64,000 nucleotides of DNA from a virus. The notes beneath the pieces are model-generated. The model did not search any database. It had not been told where the DNA came from and was given only the letters and a program-made list of their open reading frames with translations. The position numbers were made by a program, and so were the translations under genes. The stretch lies in IMG/VR virus record IMGVR_UViG_3300045988_143938; one strand, 5' to 3'. Below are positions 24,004-49,135 of this stretch, one piece after another (position 1 is the stretch's first letter; each line of letters starts with the position of its first letter).

Positions 24004-24473
24004 TAGATCGAAAGTGTTATTTGGGTTTGAGGGTCAGTAACCCGGAATGTAACACTGAACGTCAACACATCTCCCTCGTCAGTCTTGCGAACGAAAAGAT
24101 CCGGTTCTACGGATTTGTAGTAGACACCCTGCCTGCCTATCTTGGTGTAGGTGTCGTAAACCTTAAGCTCTGCACCGGAATTGTCTTTGCCGGAAAGGTA
24201 ATCCAAAAAGCCAATCACCTTTTCATTGGCTGTATCCATTTCTCCCTTGTATGCAAATTCCACGTCAAGTTCATAGGCTTGCATGTAAAGTCTATCAGGG
24301 ATAAATGTATCCTCTCCGTCCTCGTCTTTCCAGTCTCTCTTCGGCAATTCTTTAGTTTCTCCGTAAACAGCAAACGGAAAGTCCTTGCACACAACTCCCC
24401 ATTGGGACTTTGTATCAATAACAGGACTTCCCGGCTTACTCTTTTGAAAATAGATACTGTAAAGCTTTGCCAT
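24003..24473 (-). CDS. distal-tail (Dit)-like protein (156 aa)
   Basis: Positional call: directly upstream of the large fibre gene, overlapping it. The family was not verified. Confidence 0.45.
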   Translation of the reverse strand: MAKLYSIYFQKSKPGSPVIDTKSQWGVVCKDFPFAVYGETKELPKRDWKDEDGEDTFIPDRLYMQAYELDVEFAYKGEMDTANEKVIGFLDYLSGKDNSGAELKVYDTYTKIGRQGVYYKSVEPDLFVRKTDEGDVLTFSVTFRVTDPQTQITLSI

Positions 24474-24494
24474 GTGTTATCTTGAGTTTGTGTT

Positions 24495-24545
24495 GTAAAA
24501 AAACAAAAAGAGCCAACTAACGGGAATACCGTTAATCAGCTCTTT
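24495..24545 (-). terminator. leader terminator A (conserved with 40142..40185)
   Basis: On the minus strand, CAAGCCAAAGAGC...GGCTCTTTTTGTTTTTTT. The outer stem is 24507-13/24539-45 and the inner stem is TAACGG/CCGTTA. It lies between the -7 box at 24565-72 and the ATG at 24473. Confidence 0.6.
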
Positions 24546-24564
24546 GGCTTGTTCAATGTTGATG

Positions 24565-24572
24565 CAAATATA
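24565..24572 (-). promoter_or_regulatory. -7 box TATATTTG (minus strand)
   Basis: Exact TAnnTTTG match, flanked by the palindrome TAGAATATATTCTA at 24573-86. Confidence 0.5.
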
Positions 24573-24619
24573 TAGAATATATTCTAAATAATCAATACAA
24601 AAACATAGAAAATAGATGA
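24573..24619. promoter_or_regulatory. motif locus 1: palindrome TAGAATATATTCTA plus TAGAAAATAGATGA
   Basis: 24573-86 is a perfect 14-bp palindrome. 24606-19 is one copy of the recurring 14-mer. Confidence 0.6.
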
Positions 24620-24673
24620 TTTTTATTGCTTCTGCTTATGATTAATAGCCAATACTATCCGGCCATATAAATT

Positions 24674-24847
24674 TCATTTGCCCGGAGTAACTATTTTCAT
24701 GTATGGATTTATCATGCGTTTCCCTTTCAGCGTCTTTTCAAGCTCATCTATTCTTTCGTGTGCCATCTGTAAATCTTCGGACAGGCGCAATAATTGTCTC
24801 GCAAGGGAAACATTCTCTTTCTGCAATTCGTATATTTTTTCTTCCAT
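24674..24847 (-). CDS. small coiled-coil protein (57 aa)
   Basis: Hand-translated as MEEKIYELQKENVSLARQLLRLSEDLQMAHERIDELEKTLKGKRMINPYMKIVTPGK. Preferred over the plus-strand ORF 24678..24872. Confidence 0.45.
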   Translation of the reverse strand: MEEKIYELQKENVSLARQLLRLSEDLQMAHERIDELEKTLKGKRMINPYMKIVTPGK

Positions 24848-24936
24848 GATGAAATATTTGTTTAGATATTAATAATAGGGGTATAGTTATAGCTATCGGG
24901 CATTTGAACCGACTGCTAATTTATTAAATAGTACGA

Positions 24937-25254
24937 TTAGTATTTCCTCATGCAGCTTACGAATAAGGCTATAATAGATATAATAATACCTATGACGGAA
25001 AGTATTAAATTCCAATTAACAGGATTATGCAAGTTTGGATTAACGGCAAGGTAATGCTTTCCCTCTTCGGTGAGTTTGACGCTCCACACTTGACCGCCAA
25101 CCAAATAAGAAGCCTTTACTAACCCTTTTCTTTCAATGGAGCGAACGGATGCGGCAAATACATGCTTCGGATATGTAACAGGACATTCTCCGCCAAATTC
25201 CGAAACGATCCTAAATGCTTGCTTTTCCTCCTTTGTAAGTCTTATTCGCTCCAT
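24937..25254 (-). CDS. hypothetical protein with C-terminal TM anchor (105 aa)
   Basis: The N-terminal part may be winged-helix-like. The C-terminal WNLILSVIGIIISIIALFVSCM is hydrophobic. Confidence 0.55.
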   Translation of the reverse strand: MERIRLTKEEKQAFRIVSEFGGECPVTYPKHVFAASVRSIERKGLVKASYLVGGQVWSVKLTEEGKHYLAVNPNLHNPVNWNLILSVIGIIISIIALFVSCMRKY

Positions 25255-25314
25255 AACCTACTCGTTTTCTGCAAATTTACTAAATACTACGCAAATATGT
25301 GTTGTTGTGCTATA

Positions 25315-26136
25315 CTATTTTATAGGCGAAATCTTTCTGTCAGAAGGTTTCCCACCGAACAACTGATTGATATAAGCAAGTCCTTTGGGCTTACAAAGTA
25401 CCTTTTGATATAATATGTCGGGGTGGCTGTCTCTGTGTATAGGCGGTAACAGCGTCATTTCAAAATACCCGGCGTCAATGTACTTTTGTTTCGGTTCGTT
25501 CCTGTCTTTAAAGAATACGCCCACTTCCTTTAGCTTTTTAAAAAGGGTGTTTCTCCCGAAACCGAGGTTGAGAATCTTTGCGGCTTGGCCTATGTCTACT
25601 TTGCCCTCTGCTTTGAAAGCGGCTTCGGCAAAGTCGGCTTTGGGTTTTAGTTTGGCGTTCTTCTCTTCAAGCTGCTTCTTTTCTTGTTCTAATCTCGCCT
25701 TTTCCTCACGCTCATTTTTTAACTGTGTGGCAAGGCTGATAACAAGATCGGGGTTGTTTATCATCTGCTCCAAAGTTGGCTGCGTGGCGGTCATGCCGTA
25801 TTGGAGAAGCTCTTTGATGCGGTCATTGCACCATAAATAAAAGTCAGGAGAAAGCCATTGAGCGAAGATTAATGCCAAATCCTCATGTAACCATGTACCT
25901 TGATTGTTACCTCCTTGATTTACAGTAACTAAACCCGTTGCGGGAATTCCCGTTTTGGCTGATAATGAGCTAATTAACTCATTTGTCTGTTTTGTTGACA
26001 AAAAGTCATTACAGCGTTTTCCAAACGGTTTGGCCATTTCGGTGGCGTTCACCATTACACTATCGCCTTTCTGAAAGGTAATAGGACTTCCATTGTATTG
26101 GAAGATTTGATTTTCATTCAAGTGTCGCATAAACAA
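25315..26136 (-). CDS. antirepressor-type protein (KilA-N plus KilAC)
   Basis: N-terminus: ITFQKGDSVMVNATEMAKPFGKR...GTWLHEDLALIFAQWLSPDFYLWCNDRIKEL (KilA-N pattern). C-terminus: KPKADFAEAAFKAEGKVDIGQAAKILNLGFGRNTLFKKLKEVGVFF (KilAC pattern). Confidence 0.8.
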   Translation of the reverse strand: MFMRHLNENQIFQYNGSPITFQKGDSVMVNATEMAKPFGKRCNDFLSTKQTNELISSLSAKTGIPATGLVTVNQGGNNQGTWLHEDLALIFAQWLSPDFYLWCNDRIKELLQYGMTATQPTLEQMINNPDLVISLATQLKNEREEKARLEQEKKQLEEKNAKLKPKADFAEAAFKAEGKVDIGQAAKILNLGFGRNTLFKKLKEVGVFFKDRNEPKQKYIDAGYFEMTLLPPIHRDSHPDILYQKVLCKPKGLAYINQLFGGKPSDRKISPIK

Positions 26137-26166
26137 TGAAAATTAAAAGTTAATAATATAAGAAGA

Positions 26167-26242
26167 AAGCAGAGGCTTTCTCCAAGTTGCGACACTTCCA
26201 TATTGGCTTTGGGGCGAAATATGTACGGAGAAACCTCTGCTT
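26167..26242. other. long inverted repeat in the antirepressor leader
   Basis: AAGCAGAGGCTTTCTCC 26167-83 pairs with GGAGAAACCTCTGCTT 26227-42 (16 of 17 positions paired). A second pair, GCGACACT (about 26189-96) / AGTGTCGC (about 26305-12), lies nearby. Confidence 0.5.
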
Positions 26243-26376
26243 ATATTTTGGGCAGTAGTTCAATATAGGGCATAAAAAATCCCCAATCCAAATATGTATA
26301 TAAAAGTGTCGCACTGCAAAGATAGATATAATCTTTGAAATAGCAATGGTAGCCAAATATATTTTCAATAATTAGC

Positions 26377-26384
26377 TACCTTTG
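26377..26384 (+). promoter_or_regulatory. -7 box TAccTTTG
   Basis: TAnnTTTG match 27 nt upstream of the ATG at 26411. Confidence 0.4.
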
Positions 26385-26410
26385 CTGCGACAATTAAAAT
26401 TTATCTATAT

Positions 26411-26710
26411 ATGAAAGATGTATTTGATAGTTTCTCTATTGGAGATTTTGTATTCCAATCAGAGAATATGACCTATTCAGAATTTCTTGCTTTTTGCAAA
26501 TCTGTGTTAGACGAAATTGAAAAACTCAACTTATCAGATAACGGATTCTACAAAGAGAAGAAGAACTCTATTGTAAAACTTTACAGATTTGCAAAATCAG
26601 CAGAAGCGTACGTTCGCACAAACGGAGCTACCGCAGGCGGTAATTCAGAGACTGATCTTGTTTATTTGAAAGCAATCCTCGACGGGATAAAAAAACGTCA
26701 CAATCTCTAA
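26411..26710 (+). CDS. hypothetical protein (99 aa)
   Basis: Clean ORF with its own -7 box. The 3' end overlaps the convergent gene by 83 nt. Confidence 0.55.
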   Translation: MKDVFDSFSIGDFVFQSENMTYSEFLAFCKSVLDEIEKLNLSDNGFYKEKKNSIVKLYRFAKSAEAYVRTNGATAGGNSETDLVYLKAILDGIKKRHNL

Positions 26711-26924
26711 TGGGTTGCACAAAATCCTTTAGGCTGGCGTTCATCTTCTTAATGGCTGCCAGTCTTTTGTCTATTTCTTCTTCTTGCTCTAATCCGTTAT
26801 CTGCTCTCCACAGCTCTAAATCCGCAACTTCTGCTATAAGCATTTCAAGCTGAACAATAAACTCGTTACAATTCCTGTGTAATTGCAATTCCTTTCGTTC
26901 TCTTTTACTTATCTCATCTTTCAT
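26628..26924 (-). CDS. hypothetical coiled-coil protein (98 aa)
   Basis: The ATG at 26924 lies about 30 nt downstream of the minus-strand -7 box at 26956-63. Confidence 0.5.
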   Translation of the reverse strand: MKDEISKRERKELQLHRNCNEFIVQLEMLIAEVADLELWRADNGLEQEEEIDKRLAAIKKMNASLKDFVQPIRDCDVFLSRRGLLSNKQDQSLNYRLR

Positions 26925-26936
26925 AATTATTTCATG

Positions 26937-26977
26937 TATTTTCTATATTTTTGTGCAAATATATAGAAAATAGGTGA
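26937..26977. promoter_or_regulatory. motif locus 2: TATTTTCTATAT / ATATAGAAAATA inverted pair bracketing a -7 box, extended to TAGAAAATAGGTGA
   Basis: 26937-48 and 26961-72 form a perfect 12-bp inverted repeat. The 14-mer is at 26964-77. CAAATATA at 26956-63 is the minus-strand -7 box. Confidence 0.65.
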
Positions 26978-27082
26978 TTTTCTCAAGCGATGCGGATAAT
27001 AAAAGGGTGGATGTGTTTTATAACATACAATAGTTGTTACAATAAATCATAAATAAAATAATATTTATCAATATAAAGTTGT

Positions 27083-27090
27083 TAACTTTG
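27083..27090 (+). promoter_or_regulatory. -7 box TAacTTTG
   Basis: TAnnTTTG match 32 nt upstream of the lipoprotein ATG. Confidence 0.45.
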
Positions 27091-27121
27091 CCGCACATTA
27101 ATTAACAAAAACAAATGCTTT

Positions 27122-27505
27122 ATGAGAAAGATTTTATTTTTACTGGCAATGTTGCCAATGTTAATGTTTAGTGCATGTTCGGATGATGACGACGAAGTTA
27201 AGATTACCTCTGAGCAAGTTACAGGAAAATGGAATGTTACTTGGGTGCAAGAGGGAAGCGCAAGTTCTGATATATCCAAAGGGAATATATATATGGAACT
27301 AAGAAGCGATGGGTCTTACAAGACTGTAATATTCGGAGATTACTACATTGGAAAATGGAAACTTGAAGGGAGTACCGTTGTTGGAACTACAATAGACCCT
27401 ATTACCGAACGTTATACATTTACGTCATTTGACGGTAAGAATGCGGAAATAGACTACTCTAATAGCGAAGGTGATAAAATGAAGTTCAGAGCTACAAAAG
27501 AGTAA
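27122..27505 (+). CDS. lipocalin-like lipoprotein (moron)
   Basis: Signal peptide with lipobox MLMFSAC, an acidic linker SDDDDE, and GKWNVTW...GKWKLEG motifs typical of Bacteroides lipocalin-like domains. Confidence 0.75.
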   Translation: MRKILFLLAMLPMLMFSACSDDDDEVKITSEQVTGKWNVTWVQEGSASSDISKGNIYMELRSDGSYKTVIFGDYYIGKWKLEGSTVVGTTIDPITERYTFTSFDGKNAEIDYSNSEGDKMKFRATKE

Positions 27506-27545
27506 TACACAACTTTAAGGCTTAATATATTAGTACATCATCAGG

Positions 27546-27577
27546 TCAAGCGGAGGAAACTCCGCTTGATTTGTTTG
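27546..27577 (+). terminator. intrinsic terminator
   Basis: TCAAGCGGAG, a GAAA loop, CTCCGCTTGA, then TTTGTTTG. Confidence 0.75.
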
Positions 27578-27708
27578 TGAGAGAAAGTTATTCTGTATTA
27601 ATAAGTAATCTATTAAAAACTAAACATTTAGATTGGTGCCACTTCGTTGTATGCTATTAAACATGTATAAAAAAATAAGTGATTTATTGCAATATAAACT
27701 TTAGTCGC

Positions 27709-27809
27709 TATATTTGCATCATAATTACGCTCATGGCTACGCATACCCGAAAGCAGCTTCTTGCCGCTTATCCTTAAATAATGGGTATGCCGACCCCTGG
27801 GCATTTTTT
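27709..27809 (+). ncRNA. candidate about 90-nt small RNA (promoter-to-terminator unit)
   Basis: -7 box TAtaTTTG at 27709-16. 8-bp stem GCATACCC 27741-48 / GGGTATGC 27783-90. Terminal ATGCC/GGCAT hairpin plus T6 at 27804-09. Only 10-14-codon ORFs lie inside. Confidence 0.35.
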
Positions 27810-27942
27810 ATAAATAACCATAATGAAAAAAGACAACAACTTCTCACCTGTAAGGGTTGCCGTATTGGTAGATAGCGGTTTTTATAATTTTGATTAGGTA
27901 TTTCCAATCGAAATTTTCTCTGCTTTTCTTGCCTTACATATT

Positions 27943-28022
27943 TTCGTTCTATCTTTCTAAAATTACTATTGTTAAAAAACTGATTTATTGGTTATTTATT
28001 TGCTTGTTCGTTCTATCTTTCT
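27943..28022. repeat. direct repeat TTCGTTCTATCTTTCT x2 (27943-58, 28007-22)
   Basis: Exact 16-mers 64 bp apart. The second abuts the -7 box TAtaTTTG at 28023-30. Confidence 0.7.
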
Positions 28023-28049
28023 TATATTTGCATATCAAATAGCGCTATA

Positions 28050-28298
28050 ATGAGTAATTGGAGCGAAAAACAAGAAGCGAAGAAAGAGGGCAAGGAAAAG
28101 GATAAGGTAAGGCGTGAAAAACTTGCAGGATTCTTTTTTAATTTGGCGCAAGTTTCTTTCACTGTATTATCTTTGGGATTGGCAATAACCCTTGTGAAAG
28201 AAGAACTTTATGATAACATTTTATTAATTGTTCTTGTTTCTATGGGAATTATACTTACGGTATTATTTGCAAAAATAGGTAATAACATTTTAAGATAA
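28050..28298 (+). CDS. hypothetical 2-TM membrane protein (82 aa)
   Basis: Lys/Glu-rich N-terminus followed by two hydrophobic helices. -7 box 20 nt upstream. Confidence 0.55.
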   Translation: MSNWSEKQEAKKEGKEKDKVRREKLAGFFFNLAQVSFTVLSLGLAITLVKEELYDNILLIVLVSMGIILTVLFAKIGNNILR

Positions 28299-28303
28299 AT
28301 ATT

Positions 28304-28405
28304 ATGGTTGCATTATATGGGTTTGGGCTTATAACAGTAATAACTGTTGCCTTTTGGATTTATACAGAAACTCCCTCCGGTAAAAAGTGGATAAAAGGGC
28401 TGTGA
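28304..28405 (+). CDS. mini TM protein 1 (33 aa)
   Basis: MVALYGFGLITVITVAFWIYTETPSGKKWIKGL. First of three tandem paralogs ending in GKKW[IL]. Confidence 0.45.
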   Translation: MVALYGFGLITVITVAFWIYTETPSGKKWIKGL

Positions 28406-28409
28406 TAAT

Positions 28410-28514
28410 ATGGATGGATTGACAATATTATTTATATTTACGAGTATAATAGGGGGAGGTTTTGCACTTTGGCTTAAAACCAAGTCAGGCAAGAAGTGGT
28501 TAAGAGAACTGTAA
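28410..28514 (+). CDS. mini TM protein 2 (34 aa)
   Basis: MDGLTILFIFTSIIGGGFALWLKTKSGKKWLREL. Confidence 0.45.
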   Translation: MDGLTILFIFTSIIGGGFALWLKTKSGKKWLREL

Positions 28515-28516
28515 TT

Positions 28517-28621
28517 ATGGAAGGTTTGTTAATCGTTTTGGGAGGTTCTGGAGCTTTAGCCTTTTTATTTGCTCTTTGGCTGAATACTCGAAAAGGCAAG
28601 AAGTGGCTTGCAAGCTTATAA
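28517..28621 (+). CDS. mini TM protein 3 (34 aa)
   Basis: MEGLLIVLGGSGALAFLFALWLNTRKGKKWLASL. Confidence 0.45.
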   Translation: MEGLLIVLGGSGALAFLFALWLNTRKGKKWLASL

Positions 28622-28648
28622 ATTGACTATTATTTAGATAAAACAATA

Positions 28649-28676
28649 AAGCCAGACACTACATCTGGCTTTTTCT
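28649..28676. terminator. bidirectional terminator at the right edge of the island
   Basis: AAGCCAGA 28649-56 pairs with TCTGGCTT 28664-71 around a 7-nt loop. T-rich runs follow on both strands. Confidence 0.6.
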
Positions 28677-29165
28677 TTGCAATACATCTCCCTCGGTTTC
28701 TACTACACAGTCCTCTCCATGAATATATACATATACAGAGGCTATTCCTCTTTGAATTACGTTTACCTTTGCCCGGTCATACACATTAATGAATATCTTG
28801 CAATACTGAGAACAGTCAATAGTCACTTCGCTATCATGACGGACATACAAATCACATATAGAGAAACCGTCAAATAGGAGAGTACCTTTACAGCTTCCGT
28901 TCAGTACGGATGTGTGGCTCATATTTCGCTTTTGTATATCTTCGTCAACAAATATGTTGTTTCTGTGAAGAATATCCTTATCGAAGTTTTCCTTTATGAA
29001 ATTATTGGTAGGATACCCTTTGTCTATACAGAAATCAATCCCATGCAAATACTTGTCAATTAACGCTTGTTGATCGGGAGAACCCCATTGTTCCGTCCAT
29101 TCCGTACATAATCCCAGTGATACTGCTTGGTTGAGTAATGTTCTGCTTAAAGCCTTGTCGTTCAT
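28659..29165 (-). CDS. hypothetical protein (168 aa) related in architecture to the 56481..57497 repeat protein
   Basis: The N-terminal A-x4-C...LIDKYL...ENFDKDIL parallels ANAC...LLKAI...ENFTEEEL of the repeat protein. The C-terminus has a degenerate alternating V/I pattern. Directly downstream of the tape measure gene. Confidence 0.6.
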   Translation of the reverse strand: MNDKALSRTLLNQAVSLGLCTEWTEQWGSPDQQALIDKYLHGIDFCIDKGYPTNNFIKENFDKDILHRNNIFVDEDIQKRNMSHTSVLNGSCKGTLLFDGFSICDLYVRHDSEVTIDCSQYCKIFINVYDRAKVNVIQRGIASVYVYIHGEDCVVETEGDVLQRKSQM

Positions 29166-29169
29166 AATT

Positions 29170-32100
29170 TTATATATTAATCTTTCGTTTCCCTTTGTCT
29201 ATAACCATACCCACTAATCCCATAAACTCCTTTAACACAGCCAAGTTGGCTTCTGTGTTTTGAGCACTTCTTAGCGTATTGTTAGCTATCGCTCTTAATT
29301 GCGTTAGTTGCTGTTCTGCGAGAATATTGTACTTTGGGAAAATTTCATTTCCTAATTTTTCAAGAAGAGCACGTTTTACACTTACATCCTGTCGGATGCT
29401 ATTCAGGTATGAACCTAAAAGGTTTGCCGTATCTTCTGTTACACCTTGTATTCCTTTTGTTAATCCGGAAGTGGAAGATTCCCCGGTAGCCGTAAGCGCT
29501 CCTCCGGTAGCTTTATCAAAGGTTTCAAGGAAAGATTGTGAGGCATCTATCATGGCTTTCCCCTCATTGTCGAAAAAGTCTTTTATAGCCCCTGCTGCAA
29601 CAGCGCCATTATCTTGAATATCCGTAAACTCCTTAAACAGGCCTTTTTCTCCGAAAAGTTTATCCTGTAACTTTTCAAACATGGGCTGTATTACCAAGTT
29701 CTTTAATATGTTGTTGGCAACACTTCGCATGATGTTGTTCACTACGTTGTCAAAAGCCTGCGCTGCATCTTCTCCGTTGGCAAAGGCTTCCGTTAACGCA
29801 TCACTTATCTGACTTGCCCAATCCTGAAAATCTATTCCGTACAAATCTTTGGTAAGGTCTTCCACGAAATAGGCGATTTGCTCGTTCAGTTCCGCAAGCT
29901 GGTTCTTATAGTCTTGTATCTTTCCTGCATCAGATTTCTTTTTCCCTTCTTCGTTTCTTAATTGGCCCTCTATCTCTGCACGTTGAGAAACAAGTCCCAC
30001 GTATTGGGCCTGATATTGTTTAAGGACGCTGTTATCAAGTTCCTTTCCTACGCCAACCTTTTCCAATGCTTCCAGCGCTTCCTTGTCTACACCTATTTTA
30101 AAGTTTAATCCCATAAAACGCTGCATCCCGGCAGGAAGGCTCTCCATTGATTTTATCCGTTTTTTTAATTCTTCCACATAGTCCAAACCCTCGTCTTTTA
30201 ATACTCGGAATTGCATTTTATAGCTTTCGGTAAGCGAACTCCCGGCGCGTTTAACTTGTTCTTCCAACTGTTCATATAGCAATATGGCACGCTCTATACT
30301 TTCGTCTCCACCAAGCGATCTGTCTATGGATTTTCCTAATTGATCGTAGGCGGACTTTAATTCCTCAACTCTTTGTTTGCTACGCTGGATACTTCTTTCA
30401 AGTCTTTTGTCATGTAGTTGCGCAATGCTTCCGATAAAACCGGTTATCCCACCGACTATACCGGCGGCTCCTTGCATTATAGCCATAGGATTTCCACTGG
30501 TAATTCCGGCAAAAAGGGTTCCTCCGCTTTGAGCAATGTTTAATAGTCCTCCTCCAACACTTTGAATTGTACTTAACGCGTCGGCCATACTGTCATTTCC
30601 CAAAGTATCGAACATAGAACTTAGATTACCTAATGTTCCAATGAGTAGATCAGACATTTCTATGATCTCCCCAAGTCCTATGCGTACCTTGTCAGATGAG
30701 CCAGTTTGCTTGTCTTGTGCATCAGTAACATTTTTTTCGGCATCCGCTAAAGTCTTTAGTTTAGGTACTAATTTATCAACAACCTTAGTCCGATAAGATA
30801 AACCACTATCCGTTCTTTTTGTTTCAGTATGGCTCGTGTCTGAAACGCCAGTAATCACCTTGCCCCCGTTTTGGATAAACGCAAGTTCTTGTTGAGCTTT
30901 TTTCAACTCTTTGGTAGCTTCTACGTACTCCTTTATTCCATTTGATAACGTCTTAAAAGGATTTCTGCTCTCGCTCTCATCGCGCAGCTTCTTTAATACA
31001 TTGATAAGCTCTTTGAACTCGTTGACTTTTAGGCTTTGCCCGGTAGTGTTTTTAAAATCCTCTAAATTTTTAATTAACCTATCAAGCGTTGCGGAAGACA
31101 ATCGGTCAAGATCATCGAAGGTTTTTGCCCAATCTTCTGAACTTTTGAATTGCTCAAATTTGATTGATGCGACATCTTCGCCCGCTTTCTCTTTCCTTTG
31201 TGTTATAAGTCTATCGGTAGCTTCTTCTCCAAACTTCTTTCTTCGACTTTCAATATCCGCTAAATCTTTTTGAAGATTGCGTTCAATGTCTTCTATCTTT
31301 TGGGAATAGTCCTTATAATCTTCTATCATGCCTAAAAGATTATCAAGGCTTTCCGACCGCATTTTCTTGCCCTCCTCGCTTATTGCTTGATACAGCTTTA
31401 AAACGGCTCCTTCTCCGAATTGCTTCTTTACATCATCCTCTTTCATGGCAAGGACATCAGTAATGGAAAACTTGCTTCCTGTCTTTTTTAGGGCATCTCC
31501 AAGCTGATTGCGGAAATCTTCAACAATGCTTTCAAATGATATGTTTTCACCGAAAGCAATGTTCATGGAAAGCGCTTTGTTTCCGGTCGCTTCAAATAGC
31601 TTTTTATACAAGTCCCATTTCTCTCCGGCTTGAGAGACATATTTCTCTATTTCCTTTAAGGCGTTATCGGCTTCTTTTTTTGCGTTTTCAATCTGCTCTT
31701 TGTCTATCTTAACGCCAAGAGAAACATATAAATCTTTTTGCTTCTCCTTGCTTTGATCCAGCTGGTTTTGGATATACTTGTACGCCTTACTCGGATCGCT
31801 CAAGTCTAAATTTACCCCCTTGCTATCAAATACTGGTGCAAATTCGGGTATATTCTTTACTCTTTGGGCGGCCGATTCTTCCCCCTCTATTTTCCTCCAT
31901 TTCTCGTAGCTGGATATAGCTTTTTCTATGAGGTCGGCACGATTCTTCCATTGCTCGGCAATAGGGTCTTTGGCTGTATCTGTTGACTTTTCTCTTCCGC
32001 CTAACGTTTCGTATATTTTCCTTGTCGTATCAAGTTCTTTGTTATAGGACGCTAATTGTTTTTCTGAAAATTTATTATCCGGATTAAGGCTGTCTATTTT

Positions 32101-34131: not shown

Positions 34132-34139
34132 GTCGATTG

Positions 34140-34951
34140 TTATTTTGTGTCCTTTTTAATAGCGTTAACGCCGTTTACTATAAAATCATTAAGAGATATC
34201 CTTTGTCCTTTAGCTTCCTGCTCTTTCCTTTTTGCCTCCCATTTTTTTGTCAGCTCTTTCATCTCTTTGGAAGTGTGCATTCCCTTGTCTACCTTATCGT
34301 CATTATTGTACACCACAATAGGAGCATCGCATATAAGAAGCTCATACAGAGCATTGGTAAGCACCCAGTCCATGTACCAGTTAGGGATATTCACCATTCC
34401 CCAAAAGAGAACGAGAGGGCGGGTTAATTCGGGATGTTTTTCTCCGTTTGCAAAGGCTGCTCCTGCCGAAGTTCTTGAAGGATACGATCTGCTTCCTTTC
34501 TCGTCATCGTCATCACTGTGTCCTTCATTCCTGTCAAGAACATGGTAATGTTCAAGTATTGAAGTCTCTGAAATTCCACTTTTTTTTTACCAAGAGCGAC
34601 GACACTTGTCAGTTCTTGGTCTGTATATTTCTTCCACAGCATGCGCCAATGTATCCAATGGAAAAGCCTTATTTTCCACCAGTTATTCAGGATTATAAGA
34701 GACGCACATCGGGCTGTCACCTCATCGTCTTGTTTACATGATATAAAGGTGTGTGTCAGCTTTCTTATCGTTCCCCGGTGAAGCCACTTTATTCCAATCT
34801 CCTTTTCGCGAAGAGATACATAGTCTGTGCTGTTTTCAAGCACTTCATCAAGTCTTTCCTGTTCTACCGAAGTAGGTTGAGTTATCGTTTTGTCGTTCAT
34901 AATGTTTTGAGGTGTAAAAAGAAAAGGCGGCGGCATAAAGCTCACCGCCAT
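34140..34951 (-). CDS. GT-like chaperone fusion via -1 frameshift at the A9 tract
   Basis: The -1 frame is closed by TAA at 34587-89 (inside the A run) and then stays open from 34586 to the stop at 34140. It is exactly the -1 frame of the G ORF. Confidence 0.5.
34424..34951 (-). CDS. tail assembly chaperone (G-like)
   Basis: Lies between the tail tube and tape measure genes. Contains the A9 tract at 34580-88. Alternative start at 34900 (MNDKTI). Confidence 0.6.
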   Translation of the reverse strand: MAVSFMPPPFLFTPQNIMNDKTITQPTSVEQERLDEVLENSTDYVSLREKEIGIKWLHRGTIRKLTHTFISCKQDDEVTARCASLIILNNWWKIRLFHWIHWRMLWKKYTDQELTSVVALGKKKVEFQRLQYLNITMFLTGMKDTVMTMTRKEADRILQELRQEQPLQTEKNIPN

Positions 34952-34956
34952 TAATA

Positions 34957-35780
34957 TTAGGTACCAGTACCAGCCTGTGTAACTTCTACTGCTGCTGCTT
35001 TGCTTGCGGTAGAAATGTTCACAATGGCAGTTCTTGCAGATGCTCCATTATTTGCATCAACCTTGACCGTTACCACTTTGCCGCTTACGGAAGTCTTGCA
35101 CCATGTTTCTGTTGATGAAGCAGATACTGGGCTTTCTTCTGTTGTAGCTGTAATGGTCTTCCCTGTATTATCAGCGCTGCTGACGAAAGACAGGGAAGTA
35201 GGAGCTACGGTCAGGAGGCTTTTTTTGTTAAGAACGCGATATTGTCGTCAGAAGCAGCAGTGGACGCTGCACCGTCTTCAATTTCAATCGTTCCACTAAG
35301 CGCAAATGCAAACGGAGTGGTGGATGCGTTCTCGAACAACGGGCGTGCGTAGATAGCCATTTTCTTAACCAATATACATTTCTCTCCGTCTTCGCTCAAC
35401 AACGCAAAACCTGCATTAATCTTCTTACTGTTCAGAGTTACGGAGATTCCGGAATACTCTTGTCCGTTTACGGAAGCAGTTGCTACCTTGTTGGCTTCTC
35501 CGAGGAAGAAACTAACCAAATCCTCGCTTATACTCGGTACGGTAGCCGCAAATGTAATGTCACCTGCCGTACTTGTTACAGCCCAGTCCGCTTGAAGCCC
35601 ATGTACCTTTGTACGGTTCAACGTGGGTTCTGCTTGGGACAGGTTCAGGGAATCCACAGTAACGGGCAAGTCAAAGTCCGGCTCCACTGTTGCAAAGTCG
35701 GCAATACCACCCTTTACCAGCATGATAGAAGAAAGACCGCTAAACACTTCTTTCAACTCTTGTTTTGATTTCATTGCCAT
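34957..35780 (-). CDS. tail tube-BACON/Ig-like fusion via -1 frameshift at A_AAA_AAA_G
   Basis: The 0 frame ends ...ACA AAA AAA GCC TCC TGA (A7 at 35220-26). The -1 frame continues for 87 codons, SLLTVAPTSLSFVSSADNTGKTITATTEESPVSASSTETWCKTSVSGKVVTVKVDANNGASARTAIVNISTASKAAAVEVTQAGTGT, to TAA at 34957-59. Confidence 0.6.
35211..35780 (-). CDS. major tail (tube) protein (189 aa)
   Basis: Positional call: last gene before the chaperones and tape measure. Typical size. Confidence 0.7.
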   Translation of the reverse strand: MAMKSKQELKEVFSGLSSIMLVKGGIADFATVEPDFDLPVTVDSLNLSQAEPTLNRTKVHGLQADWAVTSTAGDITFAATVPSISEDLVSFFLGEANKVATASVNGQEYSGISVTLNSKKINAGFALLSEDGEKCILVKKMAIYARPLFENASTTPFAFALSGTIEIEDGAASTAASDDNIAFLTKKAS

Positions 35781-35810
35781 AATAAAAAGTTTTAATCGTT
35801 TATTTTATGT

Positions 35811-36215
35811 TTATTTTATCACAAGGTCAGCCCTTATCAATGTAGCGCTGAACCCTAATCCGTCATTACCTTTCAGTGTCAGCTTTGGGTTAGAGACGGT
35901 GATGACACTGTCACTAATCGGGAACAAGGAAAGGACTTTCCCAACAAGGGCGTCCATTACATTTAAATCTTCAACGCCGCTTTTCTTTAATCTCACGTAG
36001 ACCTCTACGGTGCAGTATGTTTGTACGTTTCCGAAACCGCATCCGTAAGTCGAGGAAGTCAATTGTCCCGGTAGTGATACTACTATGAAATTATCCATTT
36101 GCTTAGGAACGGCAGCGGGTCGGTCATTGGTAAACACGTTATCACTAACCGCAGCTGCTGCATTAAACAATGATTTAAGCGCGTCTTTGTATTTAAAATC
36201 CTGCTCGTATCCCAT
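35811..36215 (-). CDS. head-tail completion/tail terminator-like protein (134 aa)
   Basis: Positional call only. Confidence 0.5.
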   Translation of the reverse strand: MGYEQDFKYKDALKSLFNAAAAVSDNVFTNDRPAAVPKQMDNFIVVSLPGQLTSSTYGCGFGNVQTYCTVEVYVRLKKSGVEDLNVMDALVGKVLSLFPISDSVITVSNPKLTLKGNDGLGFSATLIRADLVIK

Positions 36216-36218
36216 AAC

Positions 36219-36758
36219 TTACATCGGTTTAAATGTCATCTTAGCTATGCTCTCTGCGTAATCGTATGTGTCGGAAAGCACATTCAGTCCTTTCTTGGAT
36301 TCCAAATAGTTGGAATATTCAGTACCTGTGCACATTACCAACCCTATTACATCACGAGGAGACCTATAATTCTTGAGGAAATTTACAGATGTGGTTAATC
36401 CGTATTCTCCGTTAGTATCAATCAGATTGTACTTTTTTATAGGTATAAGCCTTCCGTTTTCATAGCTTCTTACCATTATCACTCCAAGTCCGTCTCCTCT
36501 GCTCAATTTAGGGCGGGTAGCGTTCTTTAATCCTTGTGTGACAACAGCGGTTATTATTCGGGAAAGCCCGCCTCTATAATAAATTCCGACAGCCAATGAA
36601 GTCAACGTATTTCCGGTTACATTATGATATTGCGCTGATACTACTCCGTCATGCAGGAGCTTAATGGCGATCTCCGTTATCCTATCCAACATATAGTTGT
36701 CAATAACAGAATTAATCTTCTTCTTCGCGTCCTCCAAGACTTTAGCATTATCTTCCAT
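36219..36758 (-). CDS. head-tail connector region protein (179 aa)
   Basis: Positional call only. Confidence 0.5.
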   Translation of the reverse strand: MEDNAKVLEDAKKKINSVIDNYMLDRITEIAIKLLHDGVVSAQYHNVTGNTLTSLAVGIYYRGGLSRIITAVVTQGLKNATRPKLSRGDGLGVIMVRSYENGRLIPIKKYNLIDTNGEYGLTTSVNFLKNYRSPRDVIGLVMCTGTEYSNYLESKKGLNVLSDTYDYAESIAKMTFKPM

Positions 36759-36761
36759 ACC

Positions 36762-37094
36762 TTAATTTTTAGCCAGATTGAAATATAACGTTGTTCCCAT
36801 TTCCGTAGGATAGCAATCAGTTACAACACACGCTTCAAAGGTTCCGCCGTAGTCGGTAACGTCAACAAGGTCTCCCGCGATAATACCCTTCACAAGTCCG
36901 GGAATATCTATGGCGTAATCGCTTTTTATAACGTTGCTTTTCGTAAATGTTCTCAAAGAGGAGCTTCCATACTTGTTGCATTCTCCCTCATACAGAACTG
37001 TTTCCGATCCGTCTTCAAACGAGGTTTCCCCCGAAATACGATACACCTTGCATGTATGCGGAAAACGTGGATTGTTTACTTTCATAGAGGCCAC
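36762..37094 (-). CDS. head-tail connector region protein (110 aa)
   Basis: Positional call only. Confidence 0.5.
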   Translation of the reverse strand: MASMKVNNPRFPHTCKVYRISGETSFEDGSETVLYEGECNKYGSSSLRTFTKSNVIKSDYAIDIPGLVKGIIAGDLVDVTDYGGTFEACVVTDCYPTEMGTTLYFNLAKN

Positions 37095-37483
37095 CTTTTG
37101 TTCATGTTCATACCCAAGTTGACAATCTTAATAGACGATTTCTTAACATTCTCTCCATACAAAGCATATATGTCATTAGCCATTTGCCGTAAATTGCGCT
37201 TGTCATAAGCGGAACTCTCTGTACCGCCTTCTTTATGTTTCCAAACGCCATTGGCATCCTCTACACTTCCCGTTACACTCGGAGTGCTCGCGCACCACAT
37301 ATAAAGATCTGCCCGGCATAAGTCCTTGAGACGCTTTTCGATTGTAGTTACATCAGAACCGGAGGTGATGCTTCTGTCAATCAATATCGTATTGATTGCG
37401 TTGTCTGTAACCTCGAAGCCGACACAGCCACGAAGATATTCTTCAATGGTTGTGCCGGTAGTTGTATTTAGAGAATCTTTCAT
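37082..37483 (-). CDS. head-tail connector region protein (133 aa)
   Basis: Positional call: directly after the capsid gene. Confidence 0.5.
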   Translation of the reverse strand: MKDSLNTTTGTTIEEYLRGCVGFEVTDNAINTILIDRSITSGSDVTTIEKRLKDLCRADLYMWCASTPSVTGSVEDANGVWKHKEGGTESSAYDKRNLRQMANDIYALYGENVKKSSIKIVNLGMNMNKRWPL

Positions 37484-37485
37484 GG

Positions 37486-38697
37486 TTATTTACCCTTTAT
37501 GTTCAAGTAGTAGAACCAACGAACCTTGTTAGGAACAACCAATCCGGTAACTTCCGATTTGATAGTCTGCGTCATGGTTTCGTCGTTGAATACTTGGCGA
37601 ATCAGAGTGCGGCCGCCGTCATACAATGCTGTACGTGCACCCGGAGTTTCCATGAAGATAGGACGTCCGCATTGCACGTCTCCCAAATCTTCGTTCGGGA
37701 CATACGCCATAACTCCTTCCTCGAAGTTCTGCAAGGTCTTGTAGTTGATTTTCTGCGTATCCTTGTCGTAGCTTTCTACTACGGAGATAGAATCAATTAC
37801 TCTGATTTTGGCACCGATACGAGCTTCGATAAACGCCTTGATTGCTTCGTCAGGAACAAGATTTGCAAAAGCAAGCTGCATGTCTTTGTCGGAAATGTCC
37901 GGACGGTTGGCGACTGTGTACATCTGACGGAAATACGGCAGATTGATGATGTCGTCCCATGTGGTCTTGCTTACTTCCCAGTGCCCCTGTGGTGCAAAGT
38001 CTTTCTGTCGGCTGTCTCGGTTGACGTCACGCATTACCTTGATAGGATCAATTGTAGTACCTACGGCTGCTTTTTGTGTGACAACTCCGGTTGCATCAAC
38101 CTTATTGTACCAATGAGAATCTTTAATGTTCTTCTTGGGAACGCCAAAGTCTATTGACAAAGAGATGCCAAGAGGATTATTAGCCGCATCAATAATCAGG
38201 TTTCCTTTTTTGGATACGACTTGGTTTCTCTGATAAAGGAACGTGTTATAGTTACCTCCAAGCAAGCTGTCTACTCCATTAAACAGAAGTTCCATGATTG
38301 TAGCCTCTATTTCCGGTGTAGAACTGCCGATAGCATCCATCAGCATCATCTTTTCACGCAAGATTTTACGGCTTAACGTAATCTCGTGCTTGAAAGTAGG
38401 CAGTCCGCCCATTTGCAATGAAAGGCCGTCAGTTGACTTGGTAGCACCGTCACTGTCAATATCTACGTAGGTAGCCAGCGTGTACGGGCGAATTGTTGCC
38501 TCAATCTGTTCGTAAGTAGGATTCAGAGGAATGTTAGGATTTAACGGGAAACCCATTTGGGCAAAAGTCTGTTCTGCGTTATACTTATCCGCAAACATGT
38601 CGTTAATCCATGCCTCCAACGGTTTGTTGCCGGTATATCCCATAGCAGCAAGCCCTCTTCCTACAATATCGTAAAATTCTTTGTTTCTTGTGTACAT
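37486..38697 (-). CDS. major capsid protein (403 aa)
   Basis: Size and position after the scaffold and decoration-like genes. The family was not verified. The overlapping plus-strand ORFs are judged spurious. Confidence 0.65.
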   Translation of the reverse strand: MYTRNKEFYDIVGRGLAAMGYTGNKPLEAWINDMFADKYNAEQTFAQMGFPLNPNIPLNPTYEQIEATIRPYTLATYVDIDSDGATKSTDGLSLQMGGLPTFKHEITLSRKILREKMMLMDAIGSSTPEIEATIMELLFNGVDSLLGGNYNTFLYQRNQVVSKKGNLIIDAANNPLGISLSIDFGVPKKNIKDSHWYNKVDATGVVTQKAAVGTTIDPIKVMRDVNRDSRQKDFAPQGHWEVSKTTWDDIINLPYFRQMYTVANRPDISDKDMQLAFANLVPDEAIKAFIEARIGAKIRVIDSISVVESYDKDTQKINYKTLQNFEEGVMAYVPNEDLGDVQCGRPIFMETPGARTALYDGGRTLIRQVFNDETMTQTIKSEVTGLVVPNKVRWFYYLNIKGK

Positions 38698-38711
38698 ATT
38701 ATCCCCCTTTC

Positions 38712-39431
38712 TTATTCATTGGATTCGCGCACAAACTCAATCATAGGTAATTGTGCTTCTACTGATTTAGGAATACCGCCACCCGCTACGCGGTCCGCGT
38801 ATATTCTGCCTGCTCTTACTACGGCACATGTTGCAGAAATGCAACCTTCGGGGATGCAGACATCCTCAAATACAAGGCCGTTTACGTCACTTAAGTTTCC
38901 GCTTGAAGTTGCACCTTGCTTGGTAAGTTCCATTGTCCCTGTTACTCCGGTGCTTCCGGGGATAAACATGTAGGCCGGAACCATTGCAGCTGTCTTTTGC
39001 GTGAATGTCAGCACTGCGCCACTTCTTTTCACATCCCACTCTGTGAAAGTGGCCTTGCCGCCTTCAATCTTTGTAGCGACCAGTTCGGGGGTTGTTTCCG
39101 AAGCGCTTGTTACTGCGATTGAGTAGCTTTTGCTCCCCAATACAAAGGATAAATCTCCGTTGGCGGTAGCCTTGTTGGTGATAGTCAGCGTTACTACCGC
39201 TTTTACACCTGTCACTCCCTCCGCAGTAATCACCTCTACCTGTTTGCCGGGGCCGTTGAACTTAACCATTGTGCCAGCATGTATAATATCGCCAGGGTTT
39301 AATCCCATTCCGGCAACATCAATCATACCGCCTCCTTGATACAGTTCTCGAACTCTCGACCATACAGGAAAATTACCGCCAAATTCCGACCGGAATTGAC
39401 CGATAGTGTTGAATGTTCCTAATTGTCTCAT
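38712..39431 (-). CDS. head decoration-like protein with inserted beta domain (239 aa)
   Basis: PGDIIHAGTMVKFNG... and ...NGLVFEDVCIPEGCISATCAVVRAGRIYADRV resemble the gpD-type decoration fold pattern. The middle roughly 90 aa look like an extra beta domain. Recognised by eye only. Confidence 0.45.
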   Translation of the reverse strand: MRQLGTFNTIGQFRSEFGGNFPVWSRVRELYQGGGMIDVAGMGLNPGDIIHAGTMVKFNGPGKQVEVITAEGVTGVKAVVTLTITNKATANGDLSFVLGSKSYSIAVTSASETTPELVATKIEGGKATFTEWDVKRSGAVLTFTQKTAAMVPAYMFIPGSTGVTGTMELTKQGATSSGNLSDVNGLVFEDVCIPEGCISATCAVVRAGRIYADRVAGGGIPKSVEAQLPMIEFVRESNE

Positions 39432-39455
39432 CTTTTTTGTCTGTTTTAAAATGTG

Positions 39456-40118
39456 TTATTTGGTTTTCGGGAGCTTGCCTCTTGATTTCATTAACTCCTT
39501 AAAGGCTTCTCTTCGGCTTTTTGCCTGCTCTTCTCCGGTTTCCGCAAACTGATTGATACTTGGGGATGCTCCGTCTCCGAAAATCGCCTTGTATCTTTTC
39601 TCGTAGTTGCGTTTAGCACAGTTTACAATGTCCTCCACTTTCATTCCGTCTGTAATTTCCACATCGGAAATGGCAATGCCGAGGATCTCATCGTTGCAGA
39701 TGTTTTTACCACCATTCTCGATTTGAGATTTCAACTGGCTTTTGGATTCGGCCTTTAACTCGTTGATTGACGCGGCTCTTTTCTCCGCTTCTTTTTCCCC
39801 CTTTAGCTGCAAAAGCTCTTCTTCCATTTTTTTCAATTTGGCGGCAAGCGTTCCCTCGTTTGGTTCGTCTTTTGCATCGTCCGGGATTGGTTGAGGTTTG
39901 TAGTTTTTCTTGAAATCCTCAACTTGTGTTGCTACATCATGATTGTACTGTCCCTGTAACCCTTGCAGAAATCCGGTAGCCTTGTTGAAGTAAGTATCGT
40001 CAGGTTCACTTCCTTCCTCTAACGGGTTAAGGTCTATGTACTTCATTAATGTCTGTGACGAAAGGCTGGTTTGTCCAAGTCTTGTCGTTAATTCGGATAA
40101 GATTTGTTCTTTCTCCAT
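39456..40118 (-). CDS. capsid scaffolding protein (220 aa)
   Basis: Acidic and coiled-coil rich, immediately upstream of the decoration and capsid genes. Confidence 0.6.
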   Translation of the reverse strand: MEKEQILSELTTRLGQTSLSSQTLMKYIDLNPLEEGSEPDDTYFNKATGFLQGLQGQYNHDVATQVEDFKKNYKPQPIPDDAKDEPNEGTLAAKLKKMEEELLQLKGEKEAEKRAASINELKAESKSQLKSQIENGGKNICNDEILGIAISDVEITDGMKVEDIVNCAKRNYEKRYKAIFGDGASPSINQFAETGEEQAKSRREAFKELMKSRGKLPKTK

Positions 40119-40141
40119 CGTGTTTTATTTAGTTGTGTTAT

Positions 40142-40185
40142 AAAAAAAAGAGCCTATCAACGCTTTGTGCGTCAATAAGCTCTTT
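40142..40185 (-). terminator. leader terminator B (conserved with 24495..24545)
   Basis: On the minus strand, CAAGCCAAAGAGCTTATTGACG...CGTTGATAGGCTCTTTTTTTT. The outer stem is 40147-53/40179-85 and T8 corresponds to plus-strand A8 at 40142-49. Confidence 0.65.
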
Positions 40186-40208
40186 GGCTTGCATATCTAA
40201 TATTACTA

Positions 40209-40388
40209 TTATTCCTTCGTCAGTCTAACTCTCATAAATTTACGGCATCTCCTGCATATAATCCTAATGGAAGAACTTCCGCAAACTTCCTCAACGTCCA
40301 TTATTTTCTGTTTACACACCGGACATATTGCAAAGTTTCCTTTTCTATCAGGTAACTCTTCATCGAGTTGGACGTCAATTTTTATCAT
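40209..40388 (-). CDS. Com-like zinc-ribbon protein (59 aa), first ORF of the leftward late unit
   Basis: Hand-translated as MIKIDVQLDEELPDRKGNFAICPVCKQKIMDVEEVCGSSSIRIICRRCRKFMRVRLTKE. CPVC...CRRC has zinc-ribbon spacing like the Mu Com family. Below the track cutoff. Confidence 0.5.
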   Translation of the reverse strand: MIKIDVQLDEELPDRKGNFAICPVCKQKIMDVEEVCGSSSIRIICRRCRKFMRVRLTKE

Positions 40389-40407
40389 ATCACATGATTT
40401 AATAATG

Positions 40408-40415
40408 CAAATATA
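40408..40415 (-). promoter_or_regulatory. -7 box TATATTTG (minus strand)
   Basis: Exact match abutting the 14-mer at 40416-29. Confidence 0.5.
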
Positions 40416-40482
40416 TCACCTATTTTCTATAAAAACAACATTATAGACATATTTTTATGGGTAAAATTTAGAAAATAGATGA
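40416..40482. promoter_or_regulatory. motif locus 3: TCACCTATTTTCTA (40416-29) and GGGTAAAATTTAGAAAATAGATGA (40459-82), inverted pair in the divergent late promoter region
   Basis: Each copy lies next to a -7 box, at 40408-15 (minus) and 40490-97 (plus). Confidence 0.65.
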
Positions 40483-40489
40483 AAAATCG

Positions 40490-40497
40490 TATATTTG
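40490..40497 (+). promoter_or_regulatory. -7 box TATATTTG
   Basis: Exact match 7 nt after the 14-mer and 78 nt before the terL ATG. Confidence 0.5.
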
Positions 40498-40527
40498 CAC
40501 TATATATTACTCATAGAGCTGTGAATC

Positions 40528-40574
40528 AAGCCGGAGTATGCAAAATCATATTGCATGCGACGGCTTATTTTTTT
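40528..40574 (+). terminator. leader terminator C immediately before the terL start codon
   Basis: AAGCCG 40528-33 pairs with CGGCTT 40561-66, with an inner ATGCA/TGCAT stem, then A + T7 (40568-74). The ATG is at 40575. Confidence 0.55.
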
Positions 40575-45567: not shown

Positions 45568-45584
45568 TTAAAAGTTACAATAAT

Positions 45585-46142: not shown

Positions 46143-46178
46143 CACCCGGCTACTTCTTCCTTATACATAGGTTTGTGT

Positions 46179-46568: not shown

Positions 46569-46600
46569 AATCTTTTTGTGTTATATTTATTATTGCAAAT

Positions 46601-48208: not shown

Positions 48209-48348
48209 ATTTATTATATAACGTTTTTATAAGCATACCATAAAGAACATAACGGAACTGGGATTAGGTCTCATTCTTAAAAATAACATCTTCTCTTCTC
48301 TCTTTTGAGGGTTAAAAATATATATATATGTTCTTTATCATCATTATG

Positions 48349-48356
48349 CAAATATA
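48349..48356 (-). promoter_or_regulatory. -7 box TATATTTG (minus strand) for the primase-helicase gene
   Basis: Exact TAnnTTTG match about 140 nt upstream of the ATG at 48208. Confidence 0.45.
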
Positions 48357-48381
48357 CAACTACTTGATAATAAAACAAGTA

Positions 48382-49127: not shown

Positions 49128-49135
49128 TATATTTG
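49128..49135 (+). promoter_or_regulatory. -7 box TATATTTG
   Basis: Exact match at the start of the rightward gene string. Confidence 0.45.

Follow-up and report, generated by a model that had tools for sequence, protein, structure and literature searches.

Why should the structural operons of a temperate phage begin with strong terminator-like hairpins, each lying between a promoter and the first gene that the promoter serves? The question is raised by the virus record IMGVR_UViG_3300045988_143938 of IMG/VR, a stretch of 64,000 nucleotides (nt) that is called the window here. Nearly all of the window belongs to a single temperate Bacteroides phage of the LoVEphage/'Quimbyviridae' type. Three elements in it, named A, B and C, each combine a short conserved word, a hairpin and a run of U residues in front of a structural operon. 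An earlier reading made from the letters alone (the sequence-only reading) had described three late-operon leaders with intrinsic terminators and had likened them to lambda PR'-tR'/Q, where late genes are expressed only when a phage factor makes RNA polymerase resistant to termination. This interpretation is partly supported by the present analysis, from which we infer termination and read-through. The best explanation, to which we give somewhat better than an even chance, is that A, B and C are factor-dependent read-through terminators that gate three structural (middle-late) operons, with a small four-cysteine zinc-ribbon protein (Cys4) as the leading candidate for the factor. By RNA-seq after induction of a LoVE prophage, the genes for terminase, capsid, tape measure, portal, tRNAs and endolysin fall into a middle-late class (bioRxiv 10.64898/2026.06.25.734096).

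What do the three elements consist of? Element A, on the minus strand, begins with a single-stranded AAGCC box (24546..24550), followed by AAA and by the GAG that starts the stem. Its hairpin (24507..24545) has 17 base pairs (bp), including four G-U pairs, and a UAUUC loop; it folds at -25.5 kcal/mol in context (z-score -5.6) and is followed by a U run (UUGUUUUUUU, 24497..24506) and a 23-nt A/C-rich leader that reaches to the ATG at 24473. Element B, also on the minus strand, has its AAGCC box at 40186..40190, starting 18 nt past the stop codon of the Cys4 gene, and a 17-bp hairpin with the loop ACAAA (40147..40185; -23.1 kcal/mol, z-score -6.4). The unpaired U run of B covers 40142..40146 (U5, or U8 together with three paired U residues), and again a 23-nt A/C-rich leader follows. 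Element C lies on the plus strand, where an unpaired AGAGCT flank word (40515..40520) precedes a hairpin (40528..40566) with the base AAGCCG/CGGCUU and the inner stem GUAUGCAA/UUGCAUGC (-24.2 kcal/mol, z-score -5.2). The A+U7 run of C (40567..40574) abuts the terL start codon at 40575; the sequence-only reading had placed its end 1 nt short of that codon.

On the transcribed strand, each of the three presents a G+C-containing hairpin directly before a run of U7-U10, as expected of an intrinsic terminator, and for each of them none of 200 shuffled sequences folded as well. The folds thus bear out that a strong hairpin with a U tract stands before the first structural gene at all three places. 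In the 20-kilobase (kb) scans that include them, A and B rank first among terminator-like sites; the total number of such sites was about that of shuffled sequence in two scans and higher over 40001-60000 (26 against 15.8, standard deviation 4.0). The sense-strand RNA is about 7 kcal/mol more stable than the antisense RNA because of three or four G-U pairs per stem, which points to a structure at the RNA level on the coding strand. The homology of A and B goes beyond the needs of a stem, as had been claimed: 35 of 48 positions are identical by manual count, and CAAGCCAAAGAGCT is found exactly in both, with no other zero-mismatch copy in the window. The operon-end terminators of the window (28672-28648 and 46130-46151) are without flank words. 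The leader of the early antirepressor gene had been ascribed the same design, a claim that did not hold, its hairpin (7079-7095) being weak (6 bp, -10.8 kcal/mol, z-score -0.8 in context) and without a conserved box. Rfam 15 gave no gathering-score match over the whole window and none at E values up to 1 over 40100-40620.

Several observations attach to the ends of these elements. The segment between U run and ATG (24474-24496 for A, 40119-40141 for B) is a conserved, G-poor, A/C-rich leader, ACAACACAAACUCAAGAUAACAC in A and AUAACACAACUAAAUAAAACACG in B, that persists also where a relative has no hairpin and that probably serves for strong initiation of translation independent of a Shine-Dalgarno sequence. 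Among near-identical IMG/VR genomes (L001-L080), the T run after hairpin B (40142-40149) is T7, T8, T9 or T10, which could be homopolymer variation that tunes termination or could be assembly noise. The elements also flag annotation errors in which start codons are called inside hairpins: the annotated start of the LoVEphage scaffold coding sequence (MW660583; L142:21-701) lies inside hairpin B, and the called terL start of a B. pyogenes prophage (L149:1215-2843) lies inside hairpin C. A reading frame begun at the upstream in-frame ATG at 40479 of the window would extend terL through its own promoter and terminator.

Which transcripts would carry the elements? A, B and C are each found downstream of a Bacteroides-type -7 box (TAnnTTTG). 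For A this box is TATATTTG (24565..24572, minus strand), with the inverted-repeat motif TCATCTATTTTCTA upstream of it at 24606-24619, an arrangement that recurs in relatives, LoVEphage and Dulem virus 40; at A-type sites, 14 to 33 nt lie between the -7 box and the conserved box. B and C are served from a divergent region (40390-40500). Its leftward promoter, P_L, stands before the Cys4 gene and B and has a -7 box at 40408..40415 (minus strand); the rightward one, which precedes C, has its -7 box at 40490..40497 (plus strand). Copies of the inverted-repeat motif lie in this region at 40416-40429 and 40469-40482. The position of the elements downstream of the promoters argues for an action on the late transcripts themselves and not for insulation against transcription from upstream. 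The gap from U run to ATG is only 23, 23 and 0 nt at A, B and C, so that no further promoter fits and the operons have no promoter of their own behind the hairpins; late transcription from such promoters is what the sequence-only reading had named as fatal to it.

The inverted-repeat motif TCAYCTATTTTCTA occurs at A, in the B/C divergent region, at 26932/26964, at 48409 (helicase-primase) and at 54144. The sequence-only reading had spoken of motif-bearing late promoters, but one copy stands before the helicase-primase gene; there is no leader hairpin behind the promoters at 48409 and 26964. Thus, the motif is not late-specific, and it is the hairpins that set the three structural operons apart. 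A hairpin behind the 54144 promoter (54087-54067) was considered as a fourth element and rejected as too weak (-8.3 kcal/mol, z-score -1.4). At least five phage promoters have their -33 region overlapped by the inverted repeat, TCAYCTATTTTCTA ... TAGAAAAT (at 24606-24619, 26932-26977, 40416-40482, 48409-48422 and 54144-54157), and the promoters of LoVEphage and Dulem virus 40 have a related inverted repeat, TTATTTTC-N-GAAAATAA. The probable role of the motif is that of an operator or activator site shared by the lytic promoters and not of a late-specific one.

Are the elements a peculiarity of this phage? The IMG/VR relatives measure 65-72 kb; the nearest named phages are LoVEphage, BI-TP1 and PV4-TP1, with Dulem virus 40 further off, and a megablast search of the window against phages returned short matching patches only. 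At the A position, 52 of the 60 informative IMG/VR loci have the box element, two have another hairpin with a U run and six have none. At the B position the box element is present in 78 of 79. A covariance model scores element B at 75.8 bits and finds exactly two copies of the A/B type in the window, with none elsewhere in it. LoVEphage and Dulem virus 40, with downstream proteins at 52% and 41% identity, respectively, both possess A, B and C; the elements keep their positions even where the protein of the downstream gene has fallen to about 41% identity. In Dulem virus 40 the tail operon is split, and a third copy of the A/B type stands behind its own promoter before the gene of a 2045-amino-acid protein that matches the tape-measure open reading frame (ORF) of the window. 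The elements are also found in all 14 Bacteroidales genome loci and in B. pyogenes and Paraprevotella prophages. B follows the Cys4 gene in prophages of B. pyogenes, Paraprevotella clara, B. intestinalis, B. oleiciplenus and B. acidifaciens, as well as in several metagenome-assembled Bacteroidales genomes. The C-type element is known from ten lineages, while one relative (L151) has no C.

A comparison of 24 distinct A/B sequences from at least nine lineages reveals a division between what changes and what is kept, which is the central finding. The upper stem and loop are replaced wholesale between lineages, and the stems nonetheless always have 15-20 bp and -18 to -28 kcal/mol. Within the clade of the window, compensatory stem substitutions run from GU to UA, GC to CG, CG to UA and AU to GC. 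The evidence for covariation consists of per-sequence folds and direct comparison; a formal pair count (alignment A4, 65% of cells paired, 78% when slid by -1) was disregarded because the structure of model R1 is one column off. The 5' box, by contrast with the stems, is invariant: in 20 of 20 distinct elements it reads AAG(N0-1)CC, then two to four mostly A residues, then GAG, the CC being unpaired and the GAG forming those pairs of the terminator stem that are the first to contain G-C. Every lineage has also kept the U run that immediately follows the stem. The comparison of A and B in related phages that the sequence-only reading had called for has thus yielded both compensatory stem changes and an invariant single-stranded box, which makes its interpretation stronger.

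The C type uses the same two words in swapped order, with an unpaired AGAGC(U/C), which is invariant in the ten lineages, followed after 3-7 nt by AAG(G)CC(GG) as the foot of the stem; its U-rich run ends 0-5 nt before the terL ATG. Taken together, these comparisons identify A, B and C as family-wide RNA elements. In some of them additional copies of the words stand upstream. The copy before the tape-measure-like gene of Dulem virus 40 (L146:11300-11368) reads AGAGCC-UAAGC-AAGCC-ACAA-GAGCU, the terL leader of one relative (L150) reads AAGCC...AGAGCC-GAC-AAGGCC, and a sub-lineage (L154/L155/L166/Dulem_B) has GGAGA upstream of the box. The extra words hint at multiple binding sites.

Which protein might act on these elements? 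Between P_L and terminator B lies the ORF of the 59-amino-acid Cys4 zinc ribbon (CPxCxQK...CRRCRK; 40209..40388, minus strand). The order of divergent terL, Cys4, zero to eight tRNA genes, B and scaffold gene is the same in every relative examined, and Cys4 is the sole small non-structural protein that tblastn finds in common between the window, LoVEphage and Dulem virus 40. The Cys4 gene precedes terminator B on the P_L transcript; thus, the protein can be produced before any read-through. Between the Cys4 gene and B there are eight tRNA genes in LoVEphage (L143:17-858), two in Dulem virus 40 (L146, about 25790-25960) and at least one in L151, which makes them part of the short pre-terminator transcription unit in relatives. 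An ARAGORN scan of the window for tRNA and tmRNA genes found none.

Whereas tblastn and single-sequence searches with the Cys4 ORF gave nothing or one match, a profile search recovered a family of 91 clusters with the signature CPxCGQKL...CRRCKxYI. The AlphaFold2 model is a confident four-stranded zinc ribbon (mean predicted local distance difference test score 87). Aligned by hhalign with Com of phage Mu, a profile of 56 Cys4 members gave a probability of 60.6% (E value 8e-5) with both CxxC knuckles aligned. Forty of the 56 members match phrog_6417, annotated as 'translational regulator', which Mu Com itself matches at 2.8e-10. On these profile matches, the Cys4 protein appears to be remotely Com-like. 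A late activator of the P2 Ogr/Delta type was rejected as a relative (hhalign probability 5%, with the first CxxC alone aligned). The sequence-only reading had listed the Com-like ORF among several candidate factors, and it has now become the best of them.

The RNA site of Mu Com, defined by systematic evolution of ligands by exponential enrichment (SELEX) and footprinting, is 5'-CC(N)2-3GAG-3'. Com has good affinity for this site where a hairpin leaves it accessible and poor affinity where it is part of a duplex (PMC6483171). Sixteen of the 20 A/B boxes fit CC(N)2-3GAG exactly and the other four have an N4 spacer, and the letters that the Com motif specifies coincide with the invariant letters of the A/B box. 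An accessible CC(N)2-3GAG beside an inhibitory hairpin, the setting of a Com target, is found in the A/B elements and not in the C type. The likeness to the Com/mom system of Mu extends to genetic organisation, where a Cys4 zinc ribbon of about 60 amino acids is encoded directly upstream of its presumed RNA target on one transcript, and the binding of Com opens the inhibitory structure. The systems differ in that Com activates translation of just one gene, whose start codon is held in a structure that Com melts, whereas the present terminators precede the start codons of two whole operons by 28-33 nt, with a third at terL. Moreover, the relation between the proteins is remote, with the window protein below threshold, and there is no mom gene.

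How could such a protein control the structural genes? Without the factor, transcripts would stop at the U runs, giving leaders of about 60 nt at A and C and a short Cys4 transcript, in some relatives with tRNAs, that ends at B. Cys4 would build up from this short pre-terminator transcript and bind the box on nascent RNA before the 3' arm of the stem has been made, recognising AAG(N)CC-N2-4-GAG in A and B and AGAGCY-N3-7-AAGCC in C. The bound box would keep the bottom base pairs open, and RNA polymerase would continue into the operon. The action would thus take place at the terminator RNA and not, as with lambda Q, through loading at the promoter. Such a scheme would have a built-in delay, in that one type of promoter would fire the replication genes and Cys4 at once, with the structural genes following after Cys4 has accumulated.

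The proposed mode would be closer to terminator blocking by BglG/LicT and HutP than to lambda Q, though with a Com-type zinc ribbon. In the BglG/SacY/LicT-RAT, HutP and ANTAR systems, as proposed here, the binding site of an RNA-binding protein overlaps the 5' arm of a leader terminator, whose formation the protein blocks, and each terminator has its own site. Those proteins have unrelated folds, however; they stabilise an alternative antiterminator hairpin or bind repeated triplets, and the operons they control are catabolic ones of the host that respond to metabolites. In the present leaders no alternative hairpin is evident, and no cis-acting antiterminator hairpin was seen. The more specific proposition, that the Com-like zinc ribbon is a terminator-specific antiterminator which binds CC-N3-GAG on nascent RNA at the feet of the late terminators and thereby times the structural genes, is put forward tentatively and is more likely wrong than right in that full form.

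Several results weigh against the assignment of this role to Cys4 and against the gate itself. Many small ORFs have no assigned function, and another phage or host factor could act instead. The chance that the 5-nt CC-N-GAG would match within a conserved stretch of 13 nt is estimated to be of the order of 0.02-0.03, so the coincidence with the Com motif is suggestive and not proof; the C-type elements have no consistent CC-N2-3-GAG. The Cys4 protein of the window itself matches phrog_6417 weakly (E value 0.17, below threshold), Pfam and NCBIfam return generic zinc ribbons at sub-threshold scores, and a Foldseek search of the model against PDB and BFVD gave no significant structural neighbour. 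The invariant AAAGAG/CUCUUU base may in part reflect the ordinary A-tract/U-tract design of a terminator. Finally, the six relatives without a hairpin at A and the two with a hairpin and no box indicate that the gate is dispensable in some lineages.

Could the terminators be real and be overcome by something other than Cys4? Such an antiterminator might be a Q-, N-, NusG- or UpxY-like protein, a host factor, a small ORF or a helix-turn-helix (HTH) protein, and Cys4 would then do something else, for example control the translation of terL or activate promoters. Although unlikely, this is the alternative that survives best. Most small ORFs of the window have no family assignment, there is an HTH ORF resembling sigma-70 region 4 at 5912-6310, one LoVEphage ORF carries the annotation of a TFIIS-like zinc protein, and hairpin C, whose stem ends 8 nt before the terL ATG, would suit a Com-style translational control by Cys4. 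On the other hand, no member of the Q, N or NusG families was matched among 50 ORFs scanned with Pfam or among 10 ORFs scanned with PHROGs, in keeping with the earlier statement that no recognisable Q or N is present, and no regulator other than Cys4 is common to the three element-carrying lineages. UpxY of Bacteroides offers a precedent from the same host genus for operon-specific read-through of long leaders; it differs in being a NusG paralogue encoded by the first gene of the operon that it serves, and no NGN/KOW protein was found in the window.

The comparison with lambda bears on the same question. A strong intrinsic terminator between a late promoter and the structural and lysis genes is shared with lambda PR'-tR'/Q and with Q82 and Q21, and here too a phage factor would be required for late expression, with short terminated leader RNAs as the expected products. 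Q, however, is loaded at a DNA site in the promoter with the help of a sigma-dependent pause and acts processively, on one late operon, whereas in these phages three to four operons would be gated separately. It is the terminator, and not the promoter, that the conserved box accompanies, which speaks against loading close to the promoter. B in particular comes after a whole gene, and in LoVEphage also after eight tRNA genes, about 900 nt from the promoter, which does not fit the lambda loading logic. Of the lambda analogy drawn in the sequence-only reading, therefore, the placing of a terminator after the promoter stands and the promoter-loaded factor does not.

A less probable alternative is that A, B and C are constitutive and partly leaky terminators or insulators with no dedicated factor. 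They might set a fixed ratio of expression or simply end the Cys4/tRNA unit, shielding the lysis and structural genes from basal activity of the promoters in the lysogen. It would agree with this that B ends a short unit of the Cys4 gene and zero to eight tRNA genes, that the stems of the window are rich in G-U pairs, and that some relatives have no A hairpin. Structural genes, however, need very high expression, and stems of 17 bp followed by U8-10 are predicted to be efficient terminators. An insulator would be expected upstream of a promoter and not downstream of it. Leakiness also leaves unexplained why an unpaired 5' box should be invariant while the stems are fully replaced.

Still more doubtful is the idea that box and hairpin work mainly after transcription, as the site of a translational regulator, as an RNase processing or mRNA-stabilising site, or by releasing short leader RNAs that act in trans, with the U run being incidental. 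Com is a translational activator in Mu, C abuts a start codon, and each type has as its flank word the base of the 5' arm of the other type, with whose 3' arm it could pair. These complementary words, however, are just 5-6 nt long, and the U run is conserved in every lineage. The stems of A and B end 33 and 28 nt upstream of the ATG, with a conserved, unstructured A/C-rich leader in between; lying outside the ribosome footprint, they favour a transcriptional over a translational role. Hairpin C, 8 nt from the ATG, may also restrain terL translation. Two further ideas can be set aside: translation-coupled attenuation at B is ruled out by the tRNA arrays that part the Cys4 stop codon from B in relatives, and a cos or pac role for the box by its two to three copies per genome, each at the start of an operon.

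The layout of the window shows which genes would come under factor-dependent read-through at A, B and C. Early genes occupy 1-8.4 kb and run rightward. Behind A lies the leftward tail-tip/fibre/lysis operon, from 24473 down to about 8537, whose first gene (24003..24473, minus strand) encodes a Dit-like protein of 156 amino acids and is followed by that of a 1465-amino-acid fibre protein. Behind B, the scaffold/capsid/tail/tape-measure operon starts with the gene at 39456..40118 (minus strand) and extends down to 28659. A 4-kb insert of regulatory and moron genes separates these two leftward tail operons. Behind C, terL (40575..43265, plus strand; 896 amino acids, with an intein) is the first gene of the terminase/portal operon, beyond which lie helicase-primase, two integrase and recombination genes.

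Some of these genes deserve separate mention. The putative intein of TerL comprises about 353 amino acids with LAGLIDADG-type motifs (40782-41840) and is placed directly past the Walker A region (...GGNRGGGKALIFNELV|CTPFG...VTHN|S). TerL of LoVEphage and of Dulem virus 40 has no intein, whereas the relative L151 has a similar insert that matches Pfam LAGLIDADG_3 and Hom_end. There are three antirepressor-type genes, one with AntA/ANT domains (7159-8082) and two with KilA-N/ANT domains (25315-26136 and 61572-62405). The gene at 25315-26136 sits in the 4-kb insert that splits the tail operons, just upstream of element A. An antirepressor-type gene has been suggested to activate middle-late transcription in the LoVE RNA-seq study (bioRxiv 10.64898/2026.06.25.734096). 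The same insert contains the gene of a predicted 127-amino-acid lipoprotein (27122-27505) with a signal peptide ending in a lipobox Cys; it is located downstream of a motif-bearing divergent promoter and is likely to be a moron or superinfection-exclusion gene.

The ORF at 5912-6310 encodes 132 amino acids with a C-terminal HTH like that of sigma-70 region 4 (Sigma70_r4_2 and HTH_23, E value about 7e-6). The protein may act as a transcription regulator of the phage or as a small terminase; tblastn found no counterpart in LoVEphage or Dulem virus 40. Two convergent genes for tyrosine recombinases (50985-51875 and 52472-53605) both have counterparts in LoVEphage, at 48% and 56% identity; the first also has one in Dulem virus 40 (48%).

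What would read-through control of this kind mean for the phages concerned? LoVEphage was detected in about 8% of gut viromes, the most among the inducible prophages of the survey that reported it (PMC12629997). Terminators and antitermination are not mentioned in the LoVE induction preprint, the temperate-phage survey, the Com-RNA paper or the description of the Quimbyviridae. If the proposal is true, Cys4 would represent a new class of phage antitermination protein and the Com fold would have a second, transcriptional role. The elements would provide a portable RNA element of about 55 nt together with a candidate partner of 59 amino acids, and possibly a tight off/on switch for Bacteroides genetic tools. 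Promoter, box, terminator and leader would form a portable cassette and would be duplicated wherever a late operon is split. The work would thus offer a testable model of late-gene timing in Bacteroides phages and, if correct, would account for the timing of structural genes in what is the most prevalent family of temperate phages in the human gut.

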